DNA from: a virus
Lineage: Duplodnaviria; Caudoviricetes
Direction: 5' to 3' (one strand)
IMG/VR virus record: IMGVR_UViG_3300048574_000149
Location: 1-64,000 of that record
Length of the DNA stretch: 64,000 nt
Positions 76-62,589 of this stretch are shown in pieces. Below the pieces are notes generated by a model that had not been told where the DNA came from, searched no databases, and saw nothing but the letters and a program-made list of their open reading frames with translations. A program made the translations under genes and the position numbers. Every line of letters starts with the position of its first letter. Position 1 is the stretch's first letter.

Positions 76-89
76 CGTCAGAACTGACT
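76..89. promoter_or_regulatory. AGTCA-N4-TGACT operator (1 mismatch)
   Basis: CGTCA GAAC TGACT. Confidence 0.7.
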
Positions 90-90
90 G

Positions 91-270
91 TTAACCCTGC
101 CGATGCGAAGCGGCCGAGATTGCGGTGATAGTGAAGAAGGCGATCACGACCGAGGTCGCGACCAGTGCAGATTTCCAGAAGCCGAGCCCGACAAGGTCGC
201 CGATCGCGCCGCAGATTGCAGCGATGAAGGACGTGAACGCGATGGCGATGCAGGCGATGAAATAGAGCAT
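91..270 (-). CDS. Small 2-TM membrane protein (59 aa)
   Basis: Manual translation MLYFIACIAIAFTSF...; GGGAG RBS; fits the operon packing. Confidence 0.6.
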   Translation of the reverse strand: MLYFIACIAIAFTSFIAAICGAIGDLVGLGFWKSALVATSVVIAFFTITAISAASHRQG

Positions 271-283
271 CAGGTCTCCCTGT

Positions 284-463
284 TCAGTGGATGACGATCA
301 TGATGAACAGCAGCCACCAGATCCACGCCGGCGCCTTCGACATCATCAGGTGATGTTCGATGAAGTCCCGCAGGGTGAGCTCCTTCGGAAACCGAACGAA
401 GAAGATCGCCAGGGCCGCGAGCAGCAGGATCAGAATAATGATGCCAGTCACAGATGCCTCCAT
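284..463 (-). CDS. Small membrane protein
   Basis: Hydrophobic C-terminal part of track ORF 284..664, starting MEASVTGIIILILLL. Confidence 0.6.
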   Translation of the reverse strand: MEASVTGIIILILLLAALAIFFVRFPKELTLRDFIEHHLMMSKAPAWIWWLLFIMIVIH

Positions 464-975
464 GTCTTGCGCTCGCGAATGTCCGTGATCGTTTTTCTCG
501 TGATCTGTAGAGATATAGCGAGTTGAGCGAGGCTGTCTTCCGGTGCAGCCCGGATTTTCAGCACGTCCCCCGCGGTGAGCTTCGCATTGGCATTGGAGGA
601 GCCGCGGGAGGCCTTCAGGCCGGTGCCGTGCGCGTGCTTCTCCTGATCCGAGCGCGACGCCCATTCGAGATTGGTCTTGGCGTTGTTCGCCTTGACGCCA
701 TCGATGTGATTGACCTCGGGCAGATTCAGCGGGTTCGGCAGGAAGGCGATGCCAATCACCCTGTTCACCAGAACCGATTTGGAGATCCGCTCGAAGGTGA
801 GGGTGAAATAAACCCGGCCCGTCGCCTTGTGCGTGGAAAACTGGATTCGCTTATAGACGCGCTGGTTCCTAACCGTCTTGGCGTGACGATAGACCGAGCC
901 GTCCTCACGGGGCACGATGTGACGCGCCTCGATCGCGCGCTTGATCCAGGCGTCTTTATCCCAGGTATCATTCAT
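448..975 (-). CDS. HNH homing endonuclease with C-terminal helical DNA-binding tail
   Basis: VNRVIGIAFLPNP..EVNHIDGVKANN..NLEW HNH_3-type motif; AKLT...W C-terminus. Confidence 0.85.
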   Translation of the reverse strand: MNDTWDKDAWIKRAIEARHIVPREDGSVYRHAKTVRNQRVYKRIQFSTHKATGRVYFTLTFERISKSVLVNRVIGIAFLPNPLNLPEVNHIDGVKANNAKTNLEWASRSDQEKHAHGTGLKASRGSSNANAKLTAGDVLKIRAAPEDSLAQLAISLQITRKTITDIRERKTWRHL

Positions 976-1499
976 GATGACGCCCGAGCAAAACTGCCAA
1001 AGTGTTTCAAAGCTGCGGCGTCGTAAGCAGCCACAGCTTCATTTTCAGTCGCAAAGCTACCTAGAAAGATATGTTTTTGGTTTACTGTGATTTGAGCGAG
1101 ATATCGGTCTTTTCGCCGGCGAACGCCTTTTTTGCCACTAGAATTATTTGTAGGTCTATTTTTATTCGCCGCACTCTGCGATCCGGTCGCAATCCGAAGA
1201 TTGCCCCATTTGTTGTTCGATGGGTTTGTATCTTCATGGTCGACAATTCTAGTCGGCCATTTGCCGGTTACGATCGCCCAGACGATTCTATGACCTAAAC
1301 AAGGAGATCCATCGATCGATATTATGAGATATCCATCAGGTCGAATTGTTCCCGCTACATCACCCGCTTTTGCGGCTTTACAGCCGCCACGATCGATACG
1401 CCAGCGTAGTTCTCCTGTGAGAGGGTTATAGGAAAGCAACTCCTTCAATCTTTCGACCGAGGGTTCTTTTCTTACTCTCTTTCGACCAATACTGGTCAC
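972..1499 (-). CDS. HNH-AP2 homing endonuclease
   Basis: HRIVWAIVTGKWP..VDHEDTNPSNN..NLR followed by AP2-like SGKKGV...LGSFATENEAVAAYD; AT-rich. Confidence 0.9.
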   Translation of the reverse strand: MTSIGRKRVRKEPSVERLKELLSYNPLTGELRWRIDRGGCKAAKAGDVAGTIRPDGYLIISIDGSPCLGHRIVWAIVTGKWPTRIVDHEDTNPSNNKWGNLRIATGSQSAANKNRPTNNSSGKKGVRRRKDRYLAQITVNQKHIFLGSFATENEAVAAYDAAALKHFGSFARASS

Positions 1500-1660: not shown

Positions 1661-1863
1661 TTCAGCCCTTCACGCGCCTGAATGAGAATATTGGTGATCT
1701 CGTAGGGCACGAGACCCTGGATCGTGTCGATCTGATAGCGAAGGATCTGGTCGAGCGTCTGCTTGGTGATCTGAGCCCGGCTGTAGGCGTCCCAGGCATG
1801 CTCCAGCGATTCAATCGCTTTGCGCGCCAGTTCGTCCGACAGCTCGGGCCAGGATCGCTCCAT
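1657..1863 (-). CDS. Hypothetical protein
   Basis: ORF translationally coupled to its neighbours. Confidence 0.7.
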   Translation of the reverse strand: MERSWPELSDELARKAIESLEHAWDAYSRAQITKQTLDQILRYQIDTIQGLVPYEITNILIQAREGLK

Positions 1864-2546
1864 CAGTGAACCGTGATGCCTCGCTCGGCCGCCAATTCCC
1901 GGAAGCGCGAGAGCCAGATAGTCTTGGCGATCTCCGGGGACCAGTATTGGAAGTCGAAATGCCGCGGCTTTTCCTTCGCGCGGTCATAGACCTTCTTGTC
2001 GTAATGAACCGCGTCCTCTTTCGAGGCGATATTCTGCGCCACCTCGGTATGACCGAGAATCTCGTCGGCGATACGAACTTCCTTCGGCCACGGATAGACC
2101 AGGCTGAAGCGCTCGGCGATCGCCCGCGCGATTCGATCCTCGATCTTGAGATACATGGTGCCGTAACAGGGCAGGGCCTTCATCGGCCGGATCAGGTCGC
2201 CGATGATCGATTCCGGCGAATCGTGCATCAGCGCTTCCAGCGCGAATTTCCTGGGCGTCAGGTAGGAGGCGTGAATCTCGTGCTCATTGATGGTCATGCC
2301 CATGATGGACTGGCCATTGAAGCGGTAGACGCGGGACCCGCCGACTGCCAGGTCCTCGATAAAGACCTCCTCGGGGCGTGGGTCGCAGGGGAAGAAGATG
2401 CGGCCGGAATGAGTGAAGGTGTAATGGCCGAGCCGATCCGGATAGCCTGGCGAATGAACGCCCTCCAACAGGTCTTCGAGCGACGAATCCTTGATCGCCT
2501 GATCGATCATCTTCGGGGTCAGTTCCAGTGTGATCTTGTCCAGCAT
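1863..2546 (-). CDS. HD-family 5'-deoxynucleotidase-like protein (YfdR-like)
   Basis: IEDLA..RFNG..EH...ALMHDSPE..GDLIRPMK pattern. Confidence 0.8.
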   Translation of the reverse strand: MLDKITLELTPKMIDQAIKDSSLEDLLEGVHSPGYPDRLGHYTFTHSGRIFFPCDPRPEEVFIEDLAVGGSRVYRFNGQSIMGMTINEHEIHASYLTPRKFALEALMHDSPESIIGDLIRPMKALPCYGTMYLKIEDRIARAIAERFSLVYPWPKEVRIADEILGHTEVAQNIASKEDAVHYDKKVYDRAKEKPRHFDFQYWSPEIAKTIWLSRFRELAAERGITVH

Positions 2547-2616: not shown

Positions 2617-3861
2617 CTAGGCCCGCTTGAGATTCTTGGCCAGGCTCTCGCGGTCCATCTTGAGCTTCTTGGCGATGGCCCGGATCGACAGGCCTTTGCC
2701 GCCCTTATGCAGCTTCACCGCCTGGGCGAGCTTCTTGGCGTAGGCCGTATTGGGCGTCATATTGGGCGCCGAATTGATCGCGGAGGCGAGATCGCCGCGC
2801 TTGGCGGCTTCGACAGCGAGATTCTTGGCGTTCTTCTTGACCTCGACGACCGAGACTGACTGCTTCTCGATCGGCTTCGGCAATGCCCGAGTAGCCTTTT
2901 TCTTCTTCGGCTTCGCTTTCTGCGCGATCGACTTGGTCGTGATCTTGGCGGCGACAGACGTATAATTCGACGCCTTCTCGCGGCCGACCTCGACCGTCTC
3001 CAGGATCCCGACGTGATTGCCAGCGATCACGTCCTGAAGGATCTTGGCGCTTTCAGGCAGATCCTCGATCTTGACGCCCGTATCGCGCAGCCGGATCGCT
3101 TCTTCCCTCGGCAGTATCGCCACGACGTGGTAGCGCGCGACGCGAATCTTGGAAGTCTCGTGCGGCACCGCAATCGCATCCGACGGTGAGAACTTGACCA
3201 GAGTGATGGCGCAGCCATCGCCGTAATAGCTCCGAATGTAGTTCTTGGAACAGATATGCAGTCCGGTGCTACAAGCGACCCTTGCCTCATCGACCTTGGA
3301 TTCGGGCATGAACACCAGCGAGCCGACCTTCTGGCGCACCTGGCGGGTGTGACAGTCGGTCATGTAGTCGTCGGCGTCCGGCGCATTGAGGATTTTGTAG
3401 CCGATCATGCTGCCATCGTCGGCGATCGGCAGATCGGTGCCTTGAAGGAACTTGAGAAGATCGTCGCTGCTGTGCTGGCGACGTTTCGCGACGACCGCGA
3501 AATTCGCCAGGAAGTTCTTGAGGGCCTTCGGATTGTTGTTATAGACCGTCTGCTCCACGATCTTGCGCAATCCTGCCCCTTTGAGCTTCTGGTTGCCCAT
3601 CTGAATCGCAACCTCGCCGTCAGGCTTGGTTTCGATCTTGATATTCGAGTTCACGCCGAGCATCTGCTCGACCTTCTTCTCCAGTGAGAACTGGGAAAGA
3701 TCGATTTCGGGATGCTCGCCGCGGCCGAGCTTCGGCATGACCGCGTCCACGATATCCTTGGTACGGTAGCTGTCCTGTGCAAAAACCTGCACCTGACCGT
3801 CTCCCAAGAACAGCGTCACGCCGTTCTTGCCGACAACGAGACCTGTGACCTTCTCAATCAT
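2617..3861 (-). CDS. rIIB: rIIB-like protein
   Basis: LPIADDGSMIGYK...CSTGLH...VAIP/KIRVARYHV rIIB-type motifs; ATGA overlap with rIIA; C-terminal HTH. Confidence 0.8.
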   Translation of the reverse strand: MIEKVTGLVVGKNGVTLFLGDGQVQVFAQDSYRTKDIVDAVMPKLGRGEHPEIDLSQFSLEKKVEQMLGVNSNIKIETKPDGEVAIQMGNQKLKGAGLRKIVEQTVYNNNPKALKNFLANFAVVAKRRQHSSDDLLKFLQGTDLPIADDGSMIGYKILNAPDADDYMTDCHTRQVRQKVGSLVFMPESKVDEARVACSTGLHICSKNYIRSYYGDGCAITLVKFSPSDAIAVPHETSKIRVARYHVVAILPREEAIRLRDTGVKIEDLPESAKILQDVIAGNHVGILETVEVGREKASNYTSVAAKITTKSIAQKAKPKKKKATRALPKPIEKQSVSVVEVKKNAKNLAVEAAKRGDLASAINSAPNMTPNTAYAKKLAQAVKLHKGGKGLSIRAIAKKLKMDRESLAKNLKRA

Positions 3862-6278
3862 GCTTTCTCCTTCTTGCGATACGATTTCAAATGACCTTCG
3901 AGAATATTTGCGAGCGCCTCGATCGAAGGTTTGTCGAGCGATCGGTCGTAGCTGCTCCGATATTCCGGACGAATGAAGCGCCAGAGCGATTCCAGATGTG
4001 CACAATCGCGGTCGCGCACGTCGCCGCCTAAAAGTGCAAAGGCCATTTCGCGCTTGCCGGGATCCTTGATCGCGTAAGCCGCATTCTCACGATGCGCCTG
4101 CAGATAGGTGTGAAACTCGAACCACTCATCCTCGTGCAAACCAAGGCTTCGATATCGGTCGCGATGGCGAATATTGAAAAACTCCAGAACGAGCTGCCAT
4201 AAGGCCAGGCGCTCGTCGCCGTCCTTTTGTTTCGGTGTCGGGAGCCCAATTGCCAGATGTGCCAGCCTTGTGTTGACGCTCATAAGTGCGATGGCGAGGC
4301 TCGTTGCCCTATCAATGCAATAGGGAACGTCGCGATGGGTTGCCATGAAGGGAATGAAGCCGTCTTCCGAAGCGTTTCGCTTCCAGGTGAACAATTTCTG
4401 GAGAAGGGCTTCTTCCAGGCTGATCGCGCCGAGCTTCTTGACTGTTTCAGCCTCGGAGAGATTGCGACACAGCACGGTCTGAGGAAAAAGCTTGAGAACC
4501 TTCTTCAGATTTTCCAGAGATCCGCGATCGATCGAAAAGACCAGATCGTTCTCAAGACCATTCCTAACCCTGCGCATGGATTTCGCAACGAAATAGACAC
4601 TCGGCTTCGCAATCTGCTTGGTTTCGTCCATCACGGCATAGACGCCGCTGCCGCAGCGATGCTGCCAGACATGCTTGAGAACGAGTTGCTGATAGGTCTC
4701 TGCCTTCGGCGCCGGCTTGACCTTCTTCTCGACCCGCTTCGGCGGGCGCATTGCGGAATAGGCGCTCGTTGAAAAGCCAAAGCGCTCGGCCGTCTTCTGC
4801 AGCGCCTCGATTTCCTCGCAGGTGATATCCTTCTTGACGATGAAGAAGCCTGCGGGCTTTTCATAGGCACTCTCGAAATCGGGACGTTGCGCGACCGAAA
4901 CGTGAGACACAATCCGGATGGAAAGGGCCGCATCCTGAAGACACAAGCCGGACAAATTGTTCTGTTTGCTGATTTTTTCCAACGCACCATGCGGTGGGCG
5001 ATACATCAGACAATCCTGAAGACCTACGGCTGATACTGCGCGCCACAGGCGCCGCAGAATATATCGGCTGCGAATTTCCCGTTCCGAGGTGTAGACCGCG
5101 TGTTTGGTCGCGACGGAATAGGCCCAGCTCGGTACGTTCTTCTTGATGCGGTGATCGTGAAACAAACGGTTCGCCGCCTTAATCAGAACCTCCTGACCGT
5201 TACTGCGCCCCAAAAGATAAAAGTGCGCAGCCACGACAGCGGTTGCCGGTCCGTAATAGGCGCCTTCAGGGGCTCGCATGGTCTTGCTGAGAAAATTTAG
5301 ACGAGTTGCTTTCTTCAGATGGTCATGAACGACACGATTCACCTCGTGCGCGGTACGACACCCGATCTGCTTGTCAGCCTTTTGAATCAGACCCTTCAGC
5401 GTCGCAATGGTCTTGGAATTGTAGTTGAGACCTTCGCGGTTCGGCATCGGGGTGATCGAGGAGGGCGGCGCGTAGAAAATGATCGCGCAATGCCCGCGGA
5501 AATGTTTGGTCTGAATTTGTCGCAAATCAGCATCGACCGCATCGTTGCTGATCGGGTACAGCACGTTGCCATAGAGCACCGAAAACGGAGTCTCGCCATG
5601 CAGCGAACCATAGCTCGCGCCATAGCCGTGCTTTTTCAGCTCGGAATAGTCGCGCCCGGAATGAAGCTCGCCGTTCAGAAGCAGCGTAATGCCGCCGGTT
5701 TTTGAGACGCGGCGGATCTTGTCGTCAAATCTGAGCCGATCCTTCGGCTCGATCGGCACCTGCACGCAAATGCCGGATTCTGTGGTCAGACCCTGCGTCA
5801 TCAGCCGCATCGAGGGAGCGCCGTCATTGACCTCCTCGTCGCCGACGGTGACGACATAGGTGTAGCGCGTGCCCTTGTGGTGATTGATGACGGTGAAATA
5901 GTCGCTGTAGGCGAAGGGAGACTTGGCGCCGAGCCCGAAGCCGCCGGTCTGGCTGTCATCGAGCTGCTTGGTCGAGCCGAAATAGGTGCAGTAGATATCC
6001 GCCATCTTCTTCGGGTCGATGCCGGCGCCGAAATCGCGCACCGAAAACTCAGCCTCGGTCAGCTTGACCTCGATCGGCCGCTCGATGCCGGCGGCGATAT
6101 GCGCGTCCTGCGCGTTACAGATGACCTCGCGAACGACGGCGAGGGGAATGTCGCTGTAGAGCCCGGCCGAGAGCAGCTTATAGGCCTGGGCCGAAGCGTG
6201 GATCTTGAACGCCTCGGCGGGCGCTGCGCCGCCGACTAGCGCGTATTTGTCGCTCGAAACTTCCGAAGAAACCTGCAT
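3858..6278 (-). CDS. rIIA: rIIA-like protein (N-terminal GHKL/Hsp90-like ATPase)
   Basis: LYSD..AVVREVICNAQDAH, VRDFGAG, STK, GGFGLGAKSPFAY; adjacent to rIIB. Confidence 0.85.
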   Translation of the reverse strand: MQVSSEVSSDKYALVGGAAPAEAFKIHASAQAYKLLSAGLYSDIPLAVVREVICNAQDAHIAAGIERPIEVKLTEAEFSVRDFGAGIDPKKMADIYCTYFGSTKQLDDSQTGGFGLGAKSPFAYSDYFTVINHHKGTRYTYVVTVGDEEVNDGAPSMRLMTQGLTTESGICVQVPIEPKDRLRFDDKIRRVSKTGGITLLLNGELHSGRDYSELKKHGYGASYGSLHGETPFSVLYGNVLYPISNDAVDADLRQIQTKHFRGHCAIIFYAPPSSITPMPNREGLNYNSKTIATLKGLIQKADKQIGCRTAHEVNRVVHDHLKKATRLNFLSKTMRAPEGAYYGPATAVVAAHFYLLGRSNGQEVLIKAANRLFHDHRIKKNVPSWAYSVATKHAVYTSEREIRSRYILRRLWRAVSAVGLQDCLMYRPPHGALEKISKQNNLSGLCLQDAALSIRIVSHVSVAQRPDFESAYEKPAGFFIVKKDITCEEIEALQKTAERFGFSTSAYSAMRPPKRVEKKVKPAPKAETYQQLVLKHVWQHRCGSGVYAVMDETKQIAKPSVYFVAKSMRRVRNGLENDLVFSIDRGSLENLKKVLKLFPQTVLCRNLSEAETVKKLGAISLEEALLQKLFTWKRNASEDGFIPFMATHRDVPYCIDRATSLAIALMSVNTRLAHLAIGLPTPKQKDGDERLALWQLVLEFFNIRHRDRYRSLGLHEDEWFEFHTYLQAHRENAAYAIKDPGKREMAFALLGGDVRDRDCAHLESLWRFIRPEYRSSYDRSLDKPSIEALANILEGHLKSYRKKEKA

Positions 6279-6306: not shown

Positions 6307-6320
6307 AGTCAAGACTGACT
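6307..6320. promoter_or_regulatory. AGTCA-N4-TGACT operator (rIIA)
   Basis: AGTCA AGAC TGACT overlapping the GCTATA -10. Confidence 0.85.
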
Positions 6321-6350
6321 ATAGCGAATCGCGCGAGGAAGTCGGGTGGC
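6320..6350 (-). repeat. 31-bp promoter repeat, copy 1
   Basis: 28/31 identical to 21245-21275. Confidence 0.85.
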
Positions 6351-7490: not shown

Positions 7491-7758
7491 GGCGCTTTTC
7501 CTTTTGATTGAAATGAATGATCTGGGTGAGCCAGATCGCATTCATAAGGACCAGGAACACGCCGCCGACGAACGAAAACCATTGATCGAGCGACGGGTAG
7601 AAAAAACAGTTCCAGAAGCCCCAAGCGGTGAAGAACATGACCTGGGGCCAGGCGACGCCGCGCACGACCTTTTCACGGGCGAGTTTGACGATGCTGGCGA
7701 GAAGAAAGCCGCCGCCGGCAAACTCAAAGAGCCCGTTGATCAGATCAGGCGTCTGCAT
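7465..7758 (-). CDS. PQ-loop/SemiSWEET-like 3-TM membrane protein
   Basis: Three TM segments with KVVRGV..W..WGFWN..YY-like pattern. Confidence 0.55.
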
Positions 7759-7996
7759 CGGAGTGGTCCTTCAAGGCGTCGCGAATAAAGTCGCGCGCCG
7801 CATCGATCGCGGCTTCGTGGGTCTCGAAGGGACCGGCGAGAAACAGCTCGCTCGGATGAACCTTCTCGGATTCATCCATCGGGATCGAATAGTAGAAGCC
7901 AGGCTCGCCGAGCTGGCGGCACTCCGGCGGAGTGAGGTCGACAATGTCGAAGGGAACCTTGAGGATATCTTCCTCGGAGATTTCGGCGTCGGTCAT
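7745..7996 (-). CDS. Hypothetical acidic protein
   Basis: ORF directly downstream of the promoter/operator at 8010-8034. Confidence 0.7.
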   Translation of the reverse strand: MTDAEISEEDILKVPFDIVDLTPPECRQLGEPGFYYSIPMDESEKVHPSELFLAGPFETHEAAIDAARDFIRDALKDHSDADA

Positions 7997-8009: not shown

Positions 8010-8023
8010 AGTCAGTTATGACT
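8010..8023. promoter_or_regulatory. AGTCA-N4-TGACT operator
   Basis: AGTCA GTTA TGACT next to GCTATAAT. Confidence 0.85.
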
Positions 8024-10715: not shown

Positions 10716-11105
10716 CTAGTCGCGAAGCGGTGCGCCGTAGCGCTCCATCGCTTGCACGCCGAGAGCCGAAACCTTGCGAAGGAAGGGGAGAGCGTTGGTA
10801 GCGCCGTCGGGCCTGTACCAGGCTTCGCGCGCGTCGCTCAGACACTTCTCCATGCAGAGAATGACCTCGCCCGGCAGCAGATGCGGCGGGGCGCCCTCGT
10901 GACGGGCTGCGTTGCCGAGGCCGGCGTCCTGATAGTCGCGCTCGCTGTCGATCGCGGCATAGGCTGCGAAGCGCGGCGCCTGAAGATCGTGTTCGAGCTG
11001 GGAGAGGATCTTGTCGAGGCGATCGCCGGGCTCGCCGCCGATCAGTTTGTTGCCGACAAGGTCACGGGCTTCGTGAAGAAGCCCGGCAATTTTGGAGAGC
11101 GACAT
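10716..11105 (-). CDS. Hypothetical protein
   Basis: ORF downstream of the promoter/operator at 11132-11152, GAGG RBS. Confidence 0.7.
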   Translation of the reverse strand: MSLSKIAGLLHEARDLVGNKLIGGEPGDRLDKILSQLEHDLQAPRFAAYAAIDSERDYQDAGLGNAARHEGAPPHLLPGEVILCMEKCLSDAREAWYRPDGATNALPFLRKVSALGVQAMERYGAPLRD

Positions 11106-11131: not shown

Positions 11132-11145
11132 AGTCAGTGCTGACA
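11132..11145. promoter_or_regulatory. AGTCA-N4-TGACT operator (1 mismatch)
   Basis: AGTCA GTGC TGACA next to GCTATAGT. Confidence 0.8.
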
Positions 11146-11175
11146 CTATAGCGAGTTGTGCGAGGGAGCTTCCGG

Positions 11176-11817
11176 CTAGCGGCGGCTCTTGATGCGCTGG
11201 ATAATCAGGGTGTGCAGGGCAGGGTCGCCCGCCATCGCCACATGCGGCTGACGCCAGACCTGGTTCTTGGCGCCGTTCACATAAGCCCCGCCGCAGCAGA
11301 TCACGAGCGGGATCCGGTTCGCCGGGTTGTAGAAGGCATAAGTGATCGTCTTGGGCCGCGCGCCGATATTGGCGACCGTGGCGTCGACCGAGAAGGTCAT
11401 TTTCGAGCCCTCGGTCGCAACAACCCGGTCCGCGCCAGCCGAATGCCCGACATAGGCGACGAAATCACCGCGGGCGCGGGCTTCCGCCGAAGCTGAATAA
11501 GGGTTCACATAGTGGCTGTAGACCTGGGCGTCCCAGCCCTGCCGGCGCATCTTGGCGGCGAGGTCGTTGAACTGGCACTTGTCGAACATGAACAGACCAC
11601 AGGCCAGCACCACGGTGGTCTTGCCCGAGGCCTTGGGCGCCGCCTGGCGCCGGATTGTAGGCTTGGTCGGCGGCTTTGCCGCCGGGTAGCAGTAATTGGC
11701 CTGTAGACAGCGCTCCGCCTGGCTGCCGGCGGGCGCCGCCGGCTGGGCAAGAGCGGCCGCGATCGGGACCAGGGTGAAGACGGTAAGGAGGTAGAGTCGA
11801 GCCAGAAGCGGACGCAT
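11176..11817 (-). CDS. Secreted small alpha/beta-hydrolase-like protein
   Basis: Signal peptide ending ALA-Q; YVGHSAG nucleophile-elbow motif; late His (QPHVAM). Confidence 0.6.
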   Translation of the reverse strand: MRPLLARLYLLTVFTLVPIAAALAQPAAPAGSQAERCLQANYCYPAAKPPTKPTIRRQAAPKASGKTTVVLACGLFMFDKCQFNDLAAKMRRQGWDAQVYSHYVNPYSASAEARARGDFVAYVGHSAGADRVVATEGSKMTFSVDATVANIGARPKTITYAFYNPANRIPLVICCGGAYVNGAKNQVWRQPHVAMAGDPALHTLIIQRIKSRR

Positions 11818-11834: not shown

Positions 11835-11848
11835 AGTCAGGACTGACT
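11835..11848. promoter_or_regulatory. AGTCA-N4-TGACT operator
   Basis: AGTCA GGAC TGACT next to GGTATAAT. Confidence 0.85.
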
Positions 11849-11850
11849 GA

Positions 11851-12444
11851 TTATACCAGAAGCGGGCCGTGCGTCTCGGGCTTTTTGAGCAGGGCGATTT
11901 GCGGCGCCGGACCGTTGAAGCCGCGCTCCCAGACGAACCAGGTGCATTCCATCGCCGGCTTGCCCAGGCCCTTGAAATCGAGCCGCCAGGTCAGCGGCAG
12001 CGCCCAGGCGGGCATGTATTCGTTGAATAGCGGGATCCGGTTCTTGGCCTGCCAATAGGTCGATTTTAGCAGCAGGGCGAGCGTGCGCGGCCGGATCTCC
12101 GTCAGGGTGTGCCGGATGATCTTCTCGGCAAGATTGAAGGGCGGGTTGGTGATCACGTCGATCATGGTGTCGACGCCAGGCTTCGCCTTGATCGTAAAGA
12201 TGTCCCGCTGCTTCACTCGTGGATCCAGCGGGTGAATATCGGTCCCAGTCACGGGCAGACCGAACGCCTCGATCTCGGCCGCCATCATGTAATTGCCGGC
12301 GCAAGGCTCCAGCACCGGACCCTGGAAGCGATAGTGACGCATCAGCGCCACCGTCGCTTCCCAAGGTGTCGGATAGAAACCGCGAGGTTCTTGCTCGCCA
12401 CTTGCTGGATTTCCACCAGCCATCATAGCGCCGAGCCCGGTCAT
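11851..12444 (-). CDS. Orphan DNA amino-methyltransferase
   Basis: FYPTP, VLEPCAG (SAM binding) and ITNPPF (motif IV). Confidence 0.85.
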   Translation of the reverse strand: MTGLGAMMAGGNPASGEQEPRGFYPTPWEATVALMRHYRFQGPVLEPCAGNYMMAAEIEAFGLPVTGTDIHPLDPRVKQRDIFTIKAKPGVDTMIDVITNPPFNLAEKIIRHTLTEIRPRTLALLLKSTYWQAKNRIPLFNEYMPAWALPLTWRLDFKGLGKPAMECTWFVWERGFNGPAPQIALLKKPETHGPLLV

Positions 12445-12944
12445 GCGGCACCCGGCAGATGTGCCCAAGTTTTACCCGTAGCCGCTTTCCAAACCGTCAT
12501 CGTAGCGACGCCGTATTCCTTAGCTAGATTTTCATAGGTCTCTTTAGTAGCTCGGTTCCTAATTTCCAGAACTTGAGCTTCCGTCAGTTTGGCCGTGCAG
12601 TGTTTTTCGCCTCTAGTTTGCGTCCCGTGTATTTTCTTGTCGGCCAAATTCTGAGCCCGCGTGCCAAATATAAGGTTGGTATTCTTGTTGTTGTCGCAAT
12701 TACCGTCTCGATGACGAATTTCCTCACCTTTCGGAGTTGGACCGTTGAAAGCTGCGGAGACCAAGTGATGAATGTAGAGCGTCGACCCTTTGCCGTTCTC
12801 TTTTAGAGTGATGATCCAATAGCCGACTCCGCGCTTCATCTTTGTCAGCTTGCGCAGTTGCCCATTCTCGTCATTTCGCACTCGGCCCCACGAGGAGACC
12901 GAGTAACGATTTTCGAAACCTGGAATTTTAGCCCAGATCTCCAT
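12441..12944 (-). CDS. NUMOD4-HNH homing endonuclease
   Basis: EIWAKIPGFENRYSVSSWGRVR (NUMOD4) plus IHHLV..AF..IRHRDGNCDNN..NL. Confidence 0.9.
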   Translation of the reverse strand: MEIWAKIPGFENRYSVSSWGRVRNDENGQLRKLTKMKRGVGYWIITLKENGKGSTLYIHHLVSAAFNGPTPKGEEIRHRDGNCDNNKNTNLIFGTRAQNLADKKIHGTQTRGEKHCTAKLTEAQVLEIRNRATKETYENLAKEYGVATMTVWKAATGKTWAHLPGAA

Positions 12945-44369: not shown

Positions 44370-44392
44370 ATAGCAATTTCAAGCACGGGAGC

Positions 44393-51709: not shown

Positions 51710-52072
51710 TCACGACCAGAATTCGAGGGTAACAACCGTCGTAGCTGGTGCGATCAGAAGAATATGCGTCGTTCCTTCCGGGATCTCTCGCATGCCCGGT
51801 TTGAATGCCGGCGCCGAGCCATTGGTCACGTCAGCCGCCGGAACAGTGATTGCCGTGTTGTCGGACTGGAAGCGCGCGTAGAAATCAGCATTGGCCGAGA
51901 AGTTGACGTAGCGGGCGCCCGCGGGCACCGCATGCGCCTCCGATGTGTTGGCGGCAAGAACACGAGCGTCGATAAAACCCGAACCCTCCGGAATAGAATT
52001 CCGGCGGGCGAATACCGGAGCTTGATTGCGACTTTCGCGCTGCGCAGCGCCAGTGAAGGGCGTTAGAGCCAT
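51710..52072 (-). CDS. Probable small virion structural protein
   Basis: Beta-rich jelly-roll-like composition; own operator and GAGGAG RBS. Confidence 0.55.
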   Translation of the reverse strand: MALTPFTGAAQRESRNQAPVFARRNSIPEGSGFIDARVLAANTSEAHAVPAGARYVNFSANADFYARFQSDNTAITVPAADVTNGSAPAFKPGMREIPEGTTHILLIAPATTVVTLEFWS

Positions 52073-52099: not shown

Positions 52100-52113
52100 A
52101 GTCAGTTCTGACT
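52100..52113. promoter_or_regulatory. AGTCA-N4-TGACT operator
   Basis: AGTCA GTTC TGACT overlapping CTATACT. Confidence 0.85.
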
Positions 52114-52120: not shown

Positions 52121-53974
52121 CTAGCCGCGAATTTTTCCGTTCTGCATGGTCACGAGCGCACGCTTGCCGTCGGGGTATTGCACGATGTGACTTACAGCCC
52201 AGCCTGACGGCCCTTTGTTGTAACCGTGCTGCAGCTCCATGGTGCCCGCGACATAGACGCCATCCATGATCTCGGGCGAATGCTTGTCGCCGATCGACAT
52301 TTTCTTTCCGATCCTTGAAAAACCTGCGACGGATCCTTTGGCGCCGTTGGCACCGCGGAACCCGTGATGTCCGCATTCGACGCCGTCGATAACGAACGAC
52401 TTGCCGTCGATCACCCATTTCACATTGCGCAGGCCGCTATCGATCTTGCGGACCGCGTATTCGAGCAGGCTGAAGGATGGCGTTGGCTTGTAGGCGTTGA
52501 GCGCATCCCCTACCCGCTCGCGGTATTCCATATAGGCGTCTTCGAGCTGCAGACCGAGACGGATATTCTTGCCGTCGAGCCGGTAGCGACCCTCGCGAAC
52601 GTATTTCTCCAGCGCCAGGTCATGATTGGAATCGACGACCCACACGGTCATGCCTCGCCGGCAGATGAAGCCCAGAAAGCGAGCTGCGTCTTTCAGCTCG
52701 TCGAGAACATTCTCCTTGCCGCGATGCGCCACCTCGTAGAAGTGGGCATTGTCCTTCTGGTTGTGGTGATTACGGGCATAGTTGTCGAATACGTCGTGAA
52801 TGAAGATGTCCTTTGGCTTCAGCAGATCGAGCAAGGAGCCTTTGATAGGAGCGCCTGTGTCGATATCGATGCCGAAAGTGGCGCCGGCATTCTTCGGCGT
52901 CAGCTTTGCCCGATGCACGTCGCCAAAGGTGATGGCGCGCGCCCGGTGACCGCGCGTGACCTTGGCTTTCTTCACGAAGGCATCGAGATCGTAGAAGTCG
53001 CCATCCTGGTTGGCCGAAATATGCCGACAGAAGATATCGCCATCCTGGTCGAACTCGACGACAACGGCGCCGATGACGTGATGGAAGATCGACTTTACGC
53101 CAGCCTTGCGCGGAATGATCTTGGGCCTGGTGCAGGACCCGGTCGTCATCACCTGGTGCGCCTGGATCGATGGATCGGTCGAGGGCACGCTCTTGAGCTG
53201 CCGTTTGGCATGCGGAAACACGGCCCAGCGGCCGCGGCTATAGGTGACCAGGTCTGAAATGGGACGCGACGCCGTGGGCAGGGTGTTCATTTCGCCGCAG
53301 AACACGAAATTCTTGCCGATCTTCATCTGACCGAAGCACAGATAGTCTTCCAGCAGCGGATCGTAGGAGCGCGAGGTCGGGTTGTTCTCGGCCCACCATT
53401 GCGTTTCGTAGGTCCACGGCCCCACCACGATCTCGGCGCCGATATCCGCCGCATAGGCCTGCAGATTGATCCAGAAGCCTTCGTGAACCTCGGTATCGTT
53501 CTGCGCGCCGGTGAAGATGAAGCGCCGCCCCTTGCAATCCTCGATCGGATTCACCCGCAAGGTGTCGGAGAGCCATGTTCTGGGTGTGCTTTCCTTCTGC
53601 ACGCGCGCCCAGACCTCGCGATCCCAGACGTGGATCATCGAGCTTTCGACAATGACCGATTCCGGGTTGATGACTGGATACTGGGACTTGGTGAGAAGCG
53701 TTGTGATTTCGCTGGACAGCGTCTCGGCGCGCCGATCGGCATGCTGCTTGGGCGTGCCCTTGTTCTTGGTGACCGCTCGGGCCTTGTTCTGCTCCTCCTG
53801 ACGATTGAGGATTGTAGGTCCCTTACCCTTTCTGTTCATCGCCCGGAGAATGGCAGAGCGATTGCGAACCGTCTGATAGGTGATGCCCAGCTCGACGCAG
53901 ACATCAGCAAGAGAAGGATGCTTTTCCAGATCGTTGAAGACGCTGGCGAAGCGATCCCAGTCAATAGCCGGCAT
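52121..53974 (-). CDS. Large metallophosphoesterase-like phage protein with N-terminal HTH (T5 A1-like)
   Basis: GDVH, HD.FD, SNHD, HGFRG, GDKHS motifs in the C-terminal half. Confidence 0.65.
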   Translation of the reverse strand: MPAIDWDRFASVFNDLEKHPSLADVCVELGITYQTVRNRSAILRAMNRKGKGPTILNRQEEQNKARAVTKNKGTPKQHADRRAETLSSEITTLLTKSQYPVINPESVIVESSMIHVWDREVWARVQKESTPRTWLSDTLRVNPIEDCKGRRFIFTGAQNDTEVHEGFWINLQAYAADIGAEIVVGPWTYETQWWAENNPTSRSYDPLLEDYLCFGQMKIGKNFVFCGEMNTLPTASRPISDLVTYSRGRWAVFPHAKRQLKSVPSTDPSIQAHQVMTTGSCTRPKIIPRKAGVKSIFHHVIGAVVVEFDQDGDIFCRHISANQDGDFYDLDAFVKKAKVTRGHRARAITFGDVHRAKLTPKNAGATFGIDIDTGAPIKGSLLDLLKPKDIFIHDVFDNYARNHHNQKDNAHFYEVAHRGKENVLDELKDAARFLGFICRRGMTVWVVDSNHDLALEKYVREGRYRLDGKNIRLGLQLEDAYMEYRERVGDALNAYKPTPSFSLLEYAVRKIDSGLRNVKWVIDGKSFVIDGVECGHHGFRGANGAKGSVAGFSRIGKKMSIGDKHSPEIMDGVYVAGTMELQHGYNKGPSGWAVSHIVQYPDGKRALVTMQNGKIRG

Positions 53975-53994: not shown

Positions 53995-54008
53995 AGTCAC
54001 AACTGACT
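53995..54008. promoter_or_regulatory. AGTCA-N4-TGACT operator
   Basis: AGTCA CAAC TGACT next to GCTATAT. Confidence 0.85.
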
Positions 54009-54867: not shown

Positions 54868-55208
54868 TCGTCACCTTTCTCGCCCTCACCGTCTTCTTCC
54901 GACGGCGGCGCGGAGTTTGGATCGTTCATTTTCTCGGTCATCGACGACCAGTATTGGCGCTTGTTGTTGTCATCCCAGACCGCGCCGAACACGTAGAACA
55001 TCAGGATCGACATGATGGCGCCGAGCAGCGTCATGAAGATCTGAACCGCAAAGCCGGAGCCTGCGAAGAACAGCACGTTGATCAGCACCACCTCGGCGTT
55101 GACCGACAGGGCGATGACCGCGAAGCGCATCCAGCGGCGGCGAATGGGCCAATTATCCTGCCAGAGCTGCTCGGCGATCTTGTTGTCGAGCACCTTTCGA
55201 ATAGACAT
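54864..55208 (-). CDS. Holin-like 2-TM protein
   Basis: W..RRR then two TMs, YVFGA.WDD, charged tail; upstream of the spanins. Confidence 0.65.
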   Translation of the reverse strand: MSIRKVLDNKIAEQLWQDNWPIRRRWMRFAVIALSVNAEVVLINVLFFAGSGFAVQIFMTLLGAIMSILMFYVFGAVWDDNNKRQYWSSMTEKMNDPNSAPPSEEDGEGEKGDE

Positions 55209-55663
55209 TAAGGAAGGGCCTTGAGTTTGGACGGAGAAGGCTTCAGGCCCGGCTTTCGGGCCTTCAGATCCTTCAGCCTGGCCATCGTCTCCTGCTCGCG
55301 GCGATCGAGGGTGGTCAGTTCGTCTGCAATCTGGCCCAGCCGGCGCTCAAAGGTGACGCGCGCGGAGGGATCCGGATTGGCGGTGTTGACGGTGCGCTCC
55401 AGGTTGAATTTCTCGGAGCGAAGCCCGGCCCGGCGCAGGTCGATCTGTTCCATCTGACCTTCCAGCACCAGGAAGGTGATATCGGCGATCACTTCGGACT
55501 GGGTGGCGACATAAGCCTCGAAACGGGATTCGACATAGGCCTGGGTCGCCGGCACGGGCATACCGGACTGCTGATAGGACACCCAGAGGCCCGCCGTGAC
55601 GCCGAGAGCGCCCAGCAAGGCTTTTGCGTGTTCCGTATAGGACGAGAGGCTGAAGTCGAACAT
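55208..55663 (-). CDS. TM plus coiled-coil protein (lysis block)
   Basis: One TM segment followed by a coiled coil. Confidence 0.6.
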   Translation of the reverse strand: MFDFSLSSYTEHAKALLGALGVTAGLWVSYQQSGMPVPATQAYVESRFEAYVATQSEVIADITFLVLEGQMEQIDLRRAGLRSEKFNLERTVNTANPDPSARVTFERRLGQIADELTTLDRREQETMARLKDLKARKPGLKPSPSKLKALP

Positions 55664-55683: not shown

Positions 55684-55697
55684 AGTCAGGAATGACT
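55684..55697. promoter_or_regulatory. AGTCA-N4-TGACT operator (lysis block)
   Basis: AGTCA GGAA TGACT next to GCTATAAT. Confidence 0.85.
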
Positions 55698-61518: not shown

Positions 61519-61524
61519 CTGAGA

Positions 61525-62172
61525 TCAGGCTCCGGAGACGTTGAGCGTGTGGCCGATATATTCGAGGTTCGAAGTATCGATCGCGCGGCAGAGCAGATGG
61601 TCTTTCTTGCCGGCGGCCTGCGACCAGATGATATTTTGCGCGGAAAGACCGGTGAATGCGCTGGCGAATGCCAGCGTGTGCGCCGTCGTGAAGCTGATAT
61701 AGAAGGCGTAGTAGGCCTTCGCGATCAGACTTCCGCCGGTCGGGCTCGCCGCGGTGAAGTTCGAACCGTTCACGGTGATCGTGCAGGCTTGCTTGTTGCC
61801 GTTCCAGGCGGTGTTGTGGGTCAGCGCCTGATCACCGGCGAGCACCGTCTTCAGGAAGGTATTCAGCTCGTCGAGCAGCGGCATGTCTTCGGCGCGCGGC
61901 GCGATGAACACCGAGGCGTTGCCGGAGAGGTTCAGAAGCGAGCCGGTCGAGCTGGCGGTCAGCGTGCGCGACAGCGTGGTGCCGGACGAGGTATAGGTGC
62001 CGGTGCCAATTTCCCAGTTCGAGCCGTCGATGATGCAGTAGGAAACGACATCGCCGTTCGAAACGCCGGCGGCCGCAAAGCTATGGTAGCCGGTCAATGC
62101 CGCGCCGAGCGTGAGGGTGCCGATGCTAACCGTAGCAGTCGACATCCATGCGCGATTTTTAACTTTGGCCAT
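61525..62172 (-). CDS. Tail protein
   Basis: NR...T.T...[18 protein letters not shown]...TLSR pattern common in tail proteins. Confidence 0.7.
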
Positions 62173-62206
62173 AGGTCACCTTTGAGCTTTGCGGCAGCGT
62201 TTGCGA

Positions 62207-62557
62207 TTAGAGCGAGCCGGCGACGCGCTCGTAATGCGCCTTCGCCTCGCCACCCTTGGTCGCCACCGCGACACCACGACCAGTCTTGAAGTTGCGGAGA
62301 GCCCAGCGCTCCTTGCGATCGCCCAGCGACTGAATCAGGATGACGAGCGGCTTCTCCGGCCGCGGATCCATGTCGGTGCCGGCGACAGCGTCATTCACCG
62401 CGAGCTTGGCGCACTGATAGGCGGTCTCGATCCAATACTGATCGAAGTCCTTCTCCTCGACGCCGAGCGCCTTCAGGATGGCCGGATAGGCGAGATCGGG
62501 ATCGACAATGAAAGCGCCGCTCTTGTTGCGGCTCATCCATTTGGGAAGCTTGTTCAT
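62207..62557 (-). CDS. Hypothetical protein
   Basis: ORF with its own operator at 62576. Confidence 0.7.
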   Translation of the reverse strand: MNKLPKWMSRNKSGAFIVDPDLAYPAILKALGVEEKDFDQYWIETAYQCAKLAVNDAVAGTDMDPRPEKPLVILIQSLGDRKERWALRNFKTGRGVAVATKGGEAKAHYERVAGSL

Positions 62558-62575
62558 GGCAGGACCTTTTTGAAA

Positions 62576-62589
62576 CGTCAGGACTGACT
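62576..62589. promoter_or_regulatory. AGTCA-N4-TGACT operator (1 mismatch)
   Basis: CGTCA GGAC TGACT. Confidence 0.75.

Follow-up and report, generated by a model that had tools for sequence, protein, structure and literature searches.

A palindrome dispersed over the promoters of a 119,013-bp phage-plasmid is a putative operator of one element-encoded repressor

A palindrome, AGTCA-N4-TGACT, recurs throughout a 119,013-bp element that carries plasmid and tailed-phage genes on one record. We consider it probable that this palindrome is the operator of a single element-encoded, two-fold symmetric repressor, likely the XRE-family protein encoded at 40339-40746, which would silence the lytic genes in the plasmid state. 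The sites lie mostly ahead of genes, mark the majority of the blocks for replication, structural, and lysis-related functions, are conserved across the family of related phage-plasmids and differ in sequence from lineage to lineage; binding and repression at these sites, the identity of the binder and its role in lysogeny are what we infer from them.

In the window, the first 64,000 nucleotides of the record, there are 16 perfect copies against 0.01 expected (at most 1 in 100 dinucleotide shuffles) and 27 matches with no more than one mismatch against 1.0 expected (largest value 4). All 16 perfect copies reported in an earlier note on this DNA were confirmed, and its seven one-mismatch copies are all present, to which we add matches at 446, 35106, 39975, and 60411. 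The weaker copy that it had placed at 40850 is a half-site, AGTCAG (40850-40855), and not a full palindrome. Over the whole element we found 28 perfect copies, compared to 0.03 in Markov simulations, and 18 one-mismatch copies, all without a compensating change. A control with the half-sites in reverse order, TCAGT-N4-ACTGA, gave 14 matches, 12 of which are real sites read two bases off register. The putative operators of the window and the candidate repressor gene are as follows.

76-89: copy with one mismatch, 10 nt before a 76-aa gene spanning the record end
2566-2579: perfect, 5 nt after GCTATA and 19 nt before a dNMP-phosphatase-like gene (1863-2546, minus strand)
6307-6320: perfect, shares 1 nt with GCTATA, 28 nt before a rIIA-like gene (3858-6278)
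8010-8023: perfect, 5 nt after GCTATA, 13 nt before gene 7745-7996
11132-11145: one mismatch, 1 nt after GCTATA, 26 nt before gene 10716-11105
11835-11848: perfect, 3 nt after GGTATA, 17 nt before gene 11176-11817; an 18-bp palindrome, TCAGTCAG-TC-CTGACTGA
15262-15275: perfect, 50 nt before the ribonucleotide reductase gene (12944-15211)
16523-16536: perfect, 7 nt after GCTATA, ahead of gene 15900-16445/16514
24552-24565: perfect, 12 nt after GCTATA, 11 nt before gene 24148-24540, the head of a SbcCD-like block
30020-30033: perfect, 32 nt upstream of GCTATA, ahead of a SSB-like gene (28891-29889)
30975-30988: perfect, 5 nt after GCTATA, 14 nt before a UvsY-like gene (30418-30960)
35106-35119: one-mismatch copy of uncertain status, overlapping the start codon of gene 34608-35111
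37027-37040: perfect, 63 nt before a CobS-like gene (35773-36963)
39968-39981: perfect, with an overlapping one-mismatch copy at 39975-39988, 15 nt before a CobT-like gene (37550-39952)
40264-40277: one mismatch, 26 nt before a 79-aa acidic gene (39998-40237), directly after a terminator-like hairpin closing the XRE gene
40339-40746 (minus strand): XRE-family HTH protein of 135 aa, candidate repressor, HTH_3, E 7.9e-8
41070-41083: one mismatch, 128 nt before a RHH gene (41212-41412) and repC (41589-42788), plus strand
44356-44369: one mismatch, shares 1 nt with GCTATA, 49 nt before gene 43620-44306
44487-44500: one-mismatch copy at the start of gene 44492-45061
47328-47341: perfect, inside the primase gene at its 3' end, with GCTATA 20 nt downstream; 63 nt ahead of gene 46698-47264
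49889-49902: perfect, within the 3' end of gene 49847-50110, 38 nt before a DnaB-like helicase gene (48444-49850)
52100-52113: perfect, 27 nt before gene 51710-52072
53995-54008: perfect, 5 nt after GCTATA, 20 nt before gene 52121-53974
55684-55697: perfect, 3 nt after GCTATA, 20 nt before gene 55208-55663
62576-62589: one mismatch, 18 nt before gene 62207-62557, in the tail-fibre region

Since the record carries an identical 127-bp repeat at its two ends, the copies at 76 and 118962 are one site.

Once oriented, the sites share the consensus w-C/A-AGTCAG-NN-CTGACT-T/G-A, effectively 18 bp, in which the ten outer bases are near-invariant, G/C borders a free 2-bp centre, and 9 bp separate the centres of the two half-sites. 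Two symmetric positions are C/G in 29 of 33 generic matches and never A/T, G/C, or T/A, and none of these 33 matches within the element is a compensated variant; it is therefore the sequence that is under selection and not mere pairing ability. After the palindrome the flank reads T/G-A-C/T and has no T run. An intrinsic terminator or structured RNA element was rejected given the lack of both a T run and compensated variants, and hairpins of only -4.0 to -8.1 kcal/mol in the five sites folded.

With open reading frames called heuristically, 26 of the 28 perfect copies are intergenic in an element where intergenic DNA makes up 11% of the sequence, and the downstream start codon lies 8-130 nt from the site. 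The mostly intergenic placement claimed before thus holds in the window (14 of 16 perfect copies), as does the description of 47328 and 49889 as intragenic yet upstream of the next gene, both lying in last codons. The proposal that nearly every promoter is silenced goes too far: a site is present in 34 of the 74 intergenic gaps of at least 25 bp in the whole element, and in only 5 of 24 gaps in the part between 96.6 and 119 kb, which holds plasmid maintenance and small genes. The scarcity of sites at 100-119 kb is odd if the small genes there are early lytic genes.

The earlier note had placed the sites usually on or just after a GCTATA box, which is the case for about half of them: 10 of its 23 sites have an exact box that ends -1 to 12 nt before, and 11835 has GGTATA. 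An exact box accompanies 12 of 40 oriented sites, at spacings of -1, -1, 1, 3, 5 (five sites), 7, 8, and 12 nt. Promoters of the class TCC-N10-12-GCTATR were found with a site (n = 5), with the site upstream (n = 2) and without a site (n = 4), site-free promoters of the TCC-N11-GCTATA class are also present, and in the structural region the site also comes after a distinct late-type upstream motif, CCTTGA-N5. This spacing pattern is in keeping with an operator and not with a promoter element or an RNA hairpin at the 5' end.

The element is a member of the RHEph10/pLM21S1/B1VFA group of rhizobial phage-plasmids, whose members are described as ∼115-122 kb long, lacking an integrase, and carrying a full tailed-phage gene set besides genes for partition and RepC-type replication (PMC4447125, PMC12509600). 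It encodes RepC (PF03428, E 1e-37, plus PF11800 in the Pfam scan) and, by PHROGs and Pfam scans, ParA, portal, capsid, terminase, and tail genes, while none of 168 proteins scanned against PHROGs matched an integrase. A lytic-type gene set is also present, composed of rIIA/rIIB, UvsX/UvsY-like, SSB, SbcCD, RNR, ThyA, Pol III alpha, and a sigma-like protein. The gene order in common with RHEph10 is sigma-like, CobS, CobT, a small gene, XRE, a divergent small gene with RepC, ligase, primase, helicase, and PhoH; protein identities are 24-68%, and dnaE alone matches at the DNA level (77-79%). Both pLM21S1 and pRlX6 are resident plasmids (PMC4447125; PMC12509600), the former being described as not inducible with mitomycin C (PMC4447125), and B1VFA and RHEph10 were recovered as plaque-forming phages (PMC12509600). 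The genes of the present element and these relatives are what suggest a plasmid life style for it, and the precedent of phage-plasmid P1, raised in the earlier note, is an apt one.

The motif search of the full genome and relatives that the note had proposed gave, beyond the 28 perfect copies, lineage-specific versions of the site at orthologous promoters. In the B1VFA group the version is TAAGTAA-N4-TTACTTA, and AGTAA-N4-TTACT occurs 31 times in B1VFA, 30 in X66, and 30 in V1VFA-S compared to ≤0.01 expected. The RHEph10 group has ARTCAATATTGAYT, with 19-27 copies of A[AG]TCA-N4-TGA[CT]T in RHEph10, Y2_11, G002, and G003 against 0.2-0.5 expected. Two complete, circular resident plasmids of Methylobacterium carry the exact AGTCA-N4-TGACT type in 40 of 42 and 28 of 35 sites, and a Shinella plasmid has 22 sites mixing A and C halves. 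Of the gene pairs compared, 11 of 19 in B1VFA, 12 of 19 in RHEph10, and 17 of 24 in G001 have a site ahead of the orthologue, where chance would give ∼7% per gene, and the CobS-like gene has one at the orthologous place in all five relatives tested. Relatives infecting the same host genus differ in their version, each strongly over-represented, which makes a host factor unlikely as the binder. The invariant sequence around a free centre, the variable spacing to the -10 box, the conserved positions, and the lineage-specific half-sites together point to a sequence-specific dimeric protein, encoded by the element, as what binds these sites.

The most likely candidate for this binder is the XRE protein, since no other clear HTH regulator turned up, it is predicted to dimerize, and it is conserved wherever the sites occur. 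Its HTH_3 match (PF01381, residues 27-75) reaches 32.7 bits against a curated cutoff of 23 and is the only Pfam match above the curated cutoff to a dedicated transcription-regulator HTH family among 112 proteins scanned; HTH_26 is the one other Pfam match in the protein, and there is no peptidase domain (no S24). The predicted structure has a five-helix N-terminal domain (pLDDT ∼90) with helices at 31-38 and 44-51, the latter being the recognition helix, immediately preceded by E41-R42-P43, and a predicted dimer interface at 99-135. The homodimer prediction scored 0.43 (best control, 0.00), a value that 20 of 30 homodimers of solved structure attain, as against 1 of 23 monomers, with a pLDDT of 76 and at least 67% of contacts shared between runs. 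Lambda repressor (1lmb, E 0.035) and 434 Cro (2cro, E 0.042) are among the fold matches, none of which reaches E 0.001, and the C-terminal dimerization region matched no PDB chain by sequence at E ≤ 0.01. The upstream region of the XRE gene had been said to carry sites: its own promoter has the half-site at 40850-40855 and nothing more, the copy at 41070 being 323 nt upstream and facing the RHH gene and repC. As most small proteins of the element had no Pfam or PHROGs match, the binder may instead be a small element protein that these two collections fail to recognize.

An XRE orthologue is present in 14 of 14 family genomes examined, and the residue before its recognition helix follows operator position 4, with E, D, or T where this is C and S or K where it is A; the Shinella plasmid has N, matching its mixed A/C half-sites. 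This correlation amounts to one evolutionary switch, as the A-type genomes all fall in one clade (support 91/81). The association extends to two contigs from other bacterial classes: L059, sharing XRE and CobT, has two perfect TAAGTCA-N4-TGACTTA-type sites within 12 kb, and L061, sharing only XRE, has one within 16 kb. The latter goes against the correlation, with an S-N-P helix but a perfect C-type site. No such sites were found near the chromosomal XRE homologues L056, L057, L060, and L062.

Under the repressor reading, the operators would span from just inside the -10 box to ∼12 nt past it, covering the expected transcription start of ∼35-40 promoters in the replication, nucleotide-metabolism, recombination, structural, and packaging blocks. 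The XRE protein, with an N-terminal HTH and a C-terminal dimerization region, would bind as a dimer and block RNA polymerase directly at each promoter, so that the lytic program would be kept off without a lambda-type cascade while the element replicates as a RepC/ParA plasmid. Because the protein has no peptidase domain, release would occur via an antirepressor or dilution and not by RecA-stimulated cleavage. No RNA run was found to contain the sequence, which counts neither for nor against this reading.

The same protein-DNA site could instead time the lytic cycle, an early product delaying, shutting off, or activating middle and late promoters. The resemblance of the gene set to that of a large lytic phage (rIIA/rIIB, UvsX/UvsY-like, SSB, SbcCD, RNR, ThyA), the mostly site-free small-gene region at 100-119 kb, as expected of an early region, and the recovery of relatives as plaque formers (PMC12509600) are consistent with such a timer, as are the sites at 47328 and 30020, which lie upstream of the promoter at ∼-41 and ∼-52, activator positions. 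We nevertheless regard it as unlikely, given that the majority of sites cover the -10 box or start point, a repressor position, that the full site set is present in resident plasmids of the family, and that the element encodes RepC and ParA. The two roles are compatible with each other. It is very unlikely that the palindrome acts as RNA, a shared 5'-terminal stem-loop that stabilizes transcripts or recruits a factor. The modal 5-nt spacing after GCTATA would make transcripts start at or just before the palindrome, and a 5-7-bp stem was obtained for the five sites folded, but one of these is no stabler than shuffles (z-score 0.12). The -10 box overlaps or abuts the palindrome in three sites (spacing -1, -1, and 1), so that the 5' arm would stay untranscribed, and in two sites the palindrome is upstream of the promoter. 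The fixed stem sequence, the free loop and the lack of compensatory pairs, including in the 18 one-mismatch copies, likewise argue against an RNA role.

It is highly unlikely that a partition protein or a host regulator binds the sites and that these have little direct bearing on transcription. The SopB sites of N15 are dispersed centromeres, and two ParB_N-domain proteins are encoded here (90850-91530 and 91747-92415, Pfam), with a perfect site between the second gene and a divergent helicase gene. Centromeres of the ParB/parS or SopB type, which are few in number and not bound to promoter geometry, nevertheless fit poorly with ∼40 sites that coincide with promoter starts at -1 to +12 nt from -10 boxes, and with ParA already having its own RHH partner (97321-97614) in a type Ib-like arrangement; a host regulator is at odds with the differing site versions of phages from one host genus. 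Least probable of all is that the sigma-like protein or a modified polymerase reads the palindrome as part of a promoter specific to the phage. A sigma-70 region 2 protein is encoded at 35108-35773 and kept in relatives, and -10 elements with a GTC are typical for ECF sigma factors; yet sigma factors read asymmetric elements at a fixed spacing, whereas the site is symmetric, its distance to the box varies over 13 nt, and identical promoter cores occur with and without it.

Returning to the XRE repressor, a broader reading, which we put forward tentatively and consider rather doubtful, is that this protein and a TAAGTCA-N4-TGACTTA operator constitute an old, portable whole-genome silencing module of alpha-, beta-, and gammaproteobacterial phage-plasmids. 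A new immunity type would emerge when 30-40 dispersed operators switch in concert with one or two residues opening the recognition helix, passing through an intermediate of relaxed specificity. Residue 41 would go from E/D via N to S/K as operator position 4 goes from C via A/C to A, and the Shinella plasmid with its mixed half-sites would be a living example of the intermediate.

Rhizobia and methylobacteria commonly carry phage-plasmids of the RHEph10/pLM21S1/B1VFA type, and the operator map addresses how these are silenced. With an operator defined and a candidate repressor named, the silencing switch can be tested, and immunity groups (AGTCAG, ARTCAAT, AGTAA, and mixed) are predicted from sequence alone. 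The map also serves as a promoter and operon map for a genome whose genes are mostly unannotated, and the family provides a natural series for the joint change in specificity of a repressor and ∼40 operators.

Among known systems, lambda cI, 434 Cro, and P22 C2 share with the XRE candidate an N-terminal HTH_3 domain, but here ∼40 operators are dispersed instead of forming clustered tripartite OR/OL arrays, and the candidate has no S24 peptidase domain and a C-terminal region without a PDB match. In the temperate, integrating Streptomyces phage phiC31, a single repressor binds conserved inverted repeats at many intergenic loci, so that a palindromic operator is repeated much as in our element, whereas phiC31 integrates, belongs to another host phylum, and has an unrelated repressor and fewer sites. 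The stoperators bound by gp71 of mycobacteriophage L5 are asymmetric, oriented with transcription, lie mostly inside transcription units, and stop elongation; they number tens of copies genome-wide, mostly in short intergenic gaps, with immunity-specific variants among relatives. One site repeated genome-wide in short gaps, with variants between relatives, is common to both, but the sites here are symmetric and lie at -10 boxes or start points, with all but two perfect copies intergenic.

The closest parallel is P1, for which 22 C1 operators are described, asymmetric and 17 bp long, of the ATTGCTCTAATAAATTT type (PMC8546580). In both, one repressor without an SOS-cleavable domain would act on many operators at separate lytic operons across a plasmid prophage of ∼100 kb, the dispersed operators here being the 28 perfect and 18 one-mismatch copies over 34 of 74 gaps. 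The present element differs in having more sites (28 perfect, ∼40 usable), a 14-18-bp palindrome of another sequence, which implies a symmetric dimer, and a 135-aa XRE/HTH_3 protein as the candidate. By this comparison the control logic appears to be P1-like in a previously undescribed family, and together with P1 it suggests that direct repression through many operators may be a general solution for large plasmid prophages.

The palindrome AGTCA-N4-TGACT is a real and strong feature of this genome. All 16 perfect copies that the earlier note had placed in the window were found at the same positions, where 0.01 are expected (100 dinucleotide-preserving shuffles, largest count 1). Its seven one-mismatch copies were also recovered, together with four that it had not listed (446, 35106, 39975 and 60411), giving 27 matches with at most one mismatch against 1.0 expected. 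The window is the first 64 kb of a 119,013-bp viral record, over which 28 perfect copies and 18 with one mismatch were counted; those at 76 and 118962 are one site, since an identical 127-bp repeat lies at both record ends (window 1-127, genome 118887-119013). A control pattern read backwards gave 14 matches, 12 of them the same sites two bases out of register. The 127-bp direct terminal repeat looks less like a physical end than like an overlap left when a circular or permuted sequence is assembled; the terminal repeats of B1VFA, a phage of the same phage-plasmid family, are reported to measure 3.6 kb (PMC12509600).

The placement fits an operator. Intergenic sequence makes up 11.0% of the genome when 170 ORFs are called with a simple, uncurated codon-usage heuristic, and the copies fall as follows.

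Intergenic copies of the palindrome by number of mismatches (whole genome, heuristic ORFs)
Perfect copies: 26 of 28
One-mismatch copies: 11 of 18
Two-mismatch copies: 10 of 24

Nearly all sites precede minus-strand genes, with 8-130 nt between site and start codon. This extends to the two copies described earlier as intragenic, which lie in the last codons of one gene and precede the next by 63 nt (47328) and 38 nt (49889). The proposal that nearly every promoter carries a site proved too broad, as only 34 of the 74 gaps between genes that measure 25 bp or more contain a copy with at most one mismatch, with 29 of 50 gaps occupied up to 96.6 kb versus 5 of 24 in 96.6-119 kb. The one-mismatch copy at 35106-35119 overlaps the start codon of the gene at 34608-35111, at the end of the gene for a sigma-like protein.

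When 40 instances were oriented with the downstream gene, the consensus read (A/G)(T/A)C-AGTCAG-(T)(A)-CTGACT-(T/G)A, this element's own version being AGTCAGTTCTGACT. The ten outer bases are near-invariant, a free 2-bp centre is framed by G and C, and the flanks are partly symmetric, so that several copies, such as that at 11835, are full 18-bp palindromes. An exact GCTATA, which agrees with the alphaproteobacterial -10 consensus, lies just 5' of the site in 12 of the 40 instances, at gaps of -1, -1, 1, 3, 5 (five times), 7, 8 and 12 nt. The association with this box, put forward as usual, held for 10 of the 23 sites first listed, plus a GGTATA at 11835. Within the structural region (64-94 kb) the site is instead preceded by CCTTGA-N5 or other TAnnnT-like boxes.

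A promoter class of the form [ACT]TCC-N10-12-GCTAT[AG] occurs 13 times genome-wide (2.3 expected), 12 times on the minus strand; examples are listed here.

window 21212-21304
window 6320-6340
window 11147-11167
genome 98389
genome 111548
genome 116025

Among these 13 promoters the palindrome directly follows the box in five, lies upstream in two (47328 and 30020) and is absent from four. The palindrome is therefore an add-on shared by more than one promoter class, and because its distance from the box varies it behaves like an operator and unlike a polymerase recognition element. The class motif lengthens to ACCGCAATCC in the small-gene region, and B1VFA has promoters of equal design (GCxCTCC-N11-GCTATAA). 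A late-type motif, (A)TTTGACCTTGA-N5, lies immediately 5' of the palindrome in the structural module (loci L042 and L043, genome 71095-88136), for example at 71107, 82315, 85988 and 88027; ATTTAAGCTTGA takes equivalent places in B1VFA. A possible reader of the late-type motif is the sigma-like protein encoded at 35108-35773. A scan of 39900-44600 with an E. coli-type sigma-70 consensus returned 0 promoter-like sites against 1.7 expected, and this consensus is therefore of no use for the element.

The palindrome could also act in the transcript, as an RNA hairpin. Five folded sites gave hairpins of -4.0 to -8.1 kcal/mol, which is modest, and one of the five was no better than shuffles. Symmetric positions 4 and 11 are C/G in 29 of 33 generic matches in this genome and never a compensated A/T, G/C or T/A pair, and the one-mismatch copies are likewise uncompensated. 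The first arm of three sites would remain untranscribed because these sites overlap the -10 box or directly adjoin it, and in two others the palindrome is upstream of the promoter. Across the free centre the half-sites are spaced 9 bp from centre to centre, the spacing at which a dimeric HTH protein reads two successive major grooves. From the uncompensated variants, the modest hairpins, the promoter overlap and this spacing we infer a DNA operator, which we rank well above an RNA element.

Other roles for the palindrome were also considered and rejected. A class II activator site centred near -41.5 is impossible for most copies, which have a start codon 8-30 nt further on. Against a hairpin promoter of the N4 type, the protein family scans revealed no gene for a giant virion RNA polymerase. 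A methylation or restriction target would leave the promoter association unexplained, and the site contains no GANTC.

Five GenBank relatives have few copies of the exact palindrome or none at all (3, 0, 0, 2 and 0). Unbiased counting of gapped palindromes defined a version for each lineage; whole records were required, exact-palindrome counting on loci of 10-20 kb being too weak for motif definition.

Operator versions in relatives (relative; site; copies; expected copies; G-numbers denote relatives' genomes)
B1VFA, X66, V1VFA-S; AGTAA-N4-TTACT, extending to TAAGTAA-N4-TTACTTA; 31, 30, 30; at most 0.01
RHEph10, Y2_11, G002, G003; T(C/A)A(G/A)TCAATATTGA(C/T)T(T/G)A; 19-27; 0.2-0.5
G001; AGTCA-N4-TGACT; 17; 0.04
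G004, G005; AGTCA-N4-TGACT; 7, 5; 0.08
pAMS5a (Methylobacterium); AGTCA-N4-TGACT; 40 of 42 AGTMA-N4-TKACT matches; no simulated expectation
M. oryzae plasmid; AGTCA-N4-TGACT; 28 of 35 AGTMA-N4-TKACT matches; no simulated expectation
pRlX6; AGTMA-N4-TKACT, of AGTAA type among the matches listed; 28; no simulated expectation
Shinella plasmid NZ_CP132310.1 (loci L099-L104); mixed half-sites; 22 (9 A/A, 12 AGTAA/AGTCA hybrids, 1 C/C); no simulated expectation

The B1VFA site lies 4-5 nt after GCTATAA, or else it follows the late-type ATTTAAGCTTGA motif. Site positions are conserved. For site-gene pairs of this genome with an orthologue in the relative (a duplicate row, 39975, was dropped), we asked whether a site of the relative's own lies within 200 nt upstream of that orthologue; one was present for 11 of the 19 pairs shared with B1VFA, 12 of 19 with RHEph10 and 17 of 24 with G001, with chance at about 7% per gene. 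Since phages of a single host genus, Rhizobium, differ in the site, this comparison argues for a reader encoded by the element and not by the host.

Pfam was scanned with 112 small or unassigned proteins of the element, and the candidate DNA-binding proteins with coordinates are listed below.

40339-40746, minus strand, 135-aa XRE protein, candidate repressor
35108-35773, sigma-like protein
41212-41412, RHH-looking protein (by eye), upstream of repC
genome 97321-97614, RHH-looking protein (by eye), downstream of parA

Only the XRE protein passes the curated cut-off of an HTH family dedicated to transcription regulators; the family is HTH_3, and the match scores 32.7 bits where 23 are required (E = 7.9e-8). 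The two RHH-looking proteins had no Pfam match, and the other candidates are RepC, the ParB_N proteins and a terminase-small-like HTH_11 match below cut-off. XRE orthologues with 32-55% identity are present in 14 of 14 family genomes examined, at the same place between cobT and the divergent repC. The 18 homologues from a word-index search have generic names only, such as "transcriptional regulator with XRE-family HTH domain". A terminator-like hairpin at the end of the XRE gene (window 40300-40338) has GCTATA in its arms (CCGCTATGATATAGCGG) and is followed by operator 40264 and a gene for a 79-aa acidic protein.

The AlphaFold model of the XRE protein has a mean pLDDT of 76.7, reaching ~90 over residues 11-80, with HTH helices at 31-38 and 44-51. 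Homodimer prediction scored 0.43 (three runs: 0.43, 0.46 and 0.36) against 0.00 for the best control. Among solved structures, 20 of 30 homodimers but 1 of 23 single chains attain this mark, a calibration that holds only roughly because our own 13-row alignment was used. The runs shared at least 67% of contacts, with a partner pLDDT of 76 and an interface at residues 99-135, and the modelling thus supports a dimer. A PDB sequence search with the XRE alignment gave 0 matches at E ≤ 0.01 and Foldseek against PDB none at E ≤ 0.001; generic XRE-domain matches at E 0.007-0.05 were ClgR, HigA, C.BclI, Stl, lambda cI and 434 Cro.

The XRE alignment also led to two contigs from other bacterial classes. 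The first, from a Piscirickettsiaceae MAG (L059, 41% GC), has only XRE and CobT in common with this genome, and 12 kb of it contain two perfect AGTCA-N4-TGACT sites; the second, from a Methylotenera MAG (L061, 39% GC), has only XRE in common and contains one perfect site together with a hybrid site 69 nt upstream of the XRE gene. Four chromosomal XRE homologues of Rhodobacterales (L056, L057, L060 and L062) have no sites of this kind in their vicinity, and no recurrent shared palindrome was found around them. The three residues before and at the start of the recognition helix track operator type.

Helix residues and operator position 4 (residues; source; base)
ERP; this genome, pAMS5a; C
DKP; G001, M. 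oryzae plasmid; C
ENP; G004, G005; C
TKP; L059; C
TQS; RHEph10 group; C, with the ARTCAAT site
NNA; Shinella plasmid; A or C
KNP; locus L053; A
SNP; B1VFA group; A

The A-type proteins fall into a single clade (support 91/81, Shinella basal), so that the correlation counts as one evolutionary event and not many, and the Methylotenera protein is an exception in that it has SNP yet one perfect C-type site. The Shinella plasmid may be an intermediate of relaxed specificity, and the whole makes an attractive case of operator-repressor co-evolution. In the AGTAA-type phages a hybrid site (TAAGTAACTGTTGACTTA) lies ~100 nt upstream of the XRE gene (B1VFA 94115 and equivalents in X66 and V1VFA-S; loci L020, L025 and L039). 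Its two halves are of AGTAA and AGTCA type, and it is preceded by a run of A and followed by a run of T.

The element combines phage and plasmid genes. PHROG and Pfam matches cover replication and metabolism (rIIA/rIIB-like, thymidylate synthase, RNR, SbcCD-like, UvsX/UvsY-like, SSB, Pol III alpha, a sigma-70 region 2 protein, ligase, primase and DnaB-like helicase), the siphovirus-type structural module is complete, and RepC (PF03428, 1e-37), ParA with a downstream RHH protein and two ParB_N proteins are encoded; the same scans of the element's proteins gave no integrase match. Gene order agrees with Rhizobium phage RHEph10, and published work places this lineage among the phage-plasmids. RHEph10 is described as homologous to pLM21S1 (PMC7969092), a 117.5-kb plasmid-like, RHEph10-related prophage of Sinorhizobium sp. 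LM21 (PMC4447125). B1VFA and V1VFA-S encode parA, parB and repC, with 93-94.5% identity to plasmid pRlX6 (PMC12509600). Circular PLSDB plasmids of ~117 kb with a matching dnaE come from Shinella, Methylobacterium (two) and R. beringeri. A megablast search of phages and plasmids returned dnaE and tRNA matches only and no close relative. Only three wastewater sequencing runs contain 7-10% of the sampled words of this sequence, and no RNA run is among the runs listed. Further features of the genome are as follows.

window 43151-43543, minus strand, tRNA cluster (Asn-GTT, Pro-TGG, Ile-GAT, Met-CAT)
window 42780-43151, ORF call beside the tRNA cluster, which may be spurious
window 448-975 and 12441-12944, HNH endonuclease genes, one directly downstream of the ribonucleotide reductase gene
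genome 102718-103086 (L044 2718-3086), 369-bp intergenic stretch before a GCTATA box, rich in the short repeats CCATGGG, TAGGAACC and GGGACC

Homing endonucleases often sit directly downstream of genes such as that for ribonucleotide reductase. The 369-bp repeat stretch could be iterons or the array of another regulator.

The placement of the sites is shown by the sequence; binding, repression and a lysogenic role are what we infer from these data. In the plasmid state, XRE dimers would occupy the operators and each bound dimer would close its lytic promoter directly, a shut-off suggested by the fact that most operators cover the -10/start region. Expression would continue in the site-poor part, namely from the XRE gene, from parA and its RHH partner, and from the small genes of the 97-119 kb region, among whose products are DUF3085, DUF5983, DUF4314 and DUF6573 proteins (Pfam). 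The repC unit has a one-mismatch copy 128 nt before its RHH gene. Pfam finds no peptidase domain in the XRE protein. This agrees with the report that mitomycin C did not induce pLM21S1 (PMC4447125) and suggests that release would occur through an antirepressor or some other trigger. The acidic 79-aa protein just downstream of XRE has its own conserved operator; that it is a modulator is pure conjecture.

In the literature searched for the RHEph10/pLM21S1/B1VFA family we found no description of the site, and the family papers that were read do not mention operators. TAAGTAA gave only unrelated-looking occurrences among the matches listed, and the other operator motif strings gave none. Searches on dispersed repressor operators in phage-plasmids found no match, and those on Rhizobium phage promoters nothing relevant among the matches listed. 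Phage-plasmid P1 has 22 dispersed C1 operators (PMC8546580). The logic of many dispersed operators is the same, whereas the P1 operator is asymmetric and that of this element palindromic. The stoperators of L5 and the conserved inverted repeats of phiC31 are further precedents. The kind of control system is already known, and this element is an additional member.
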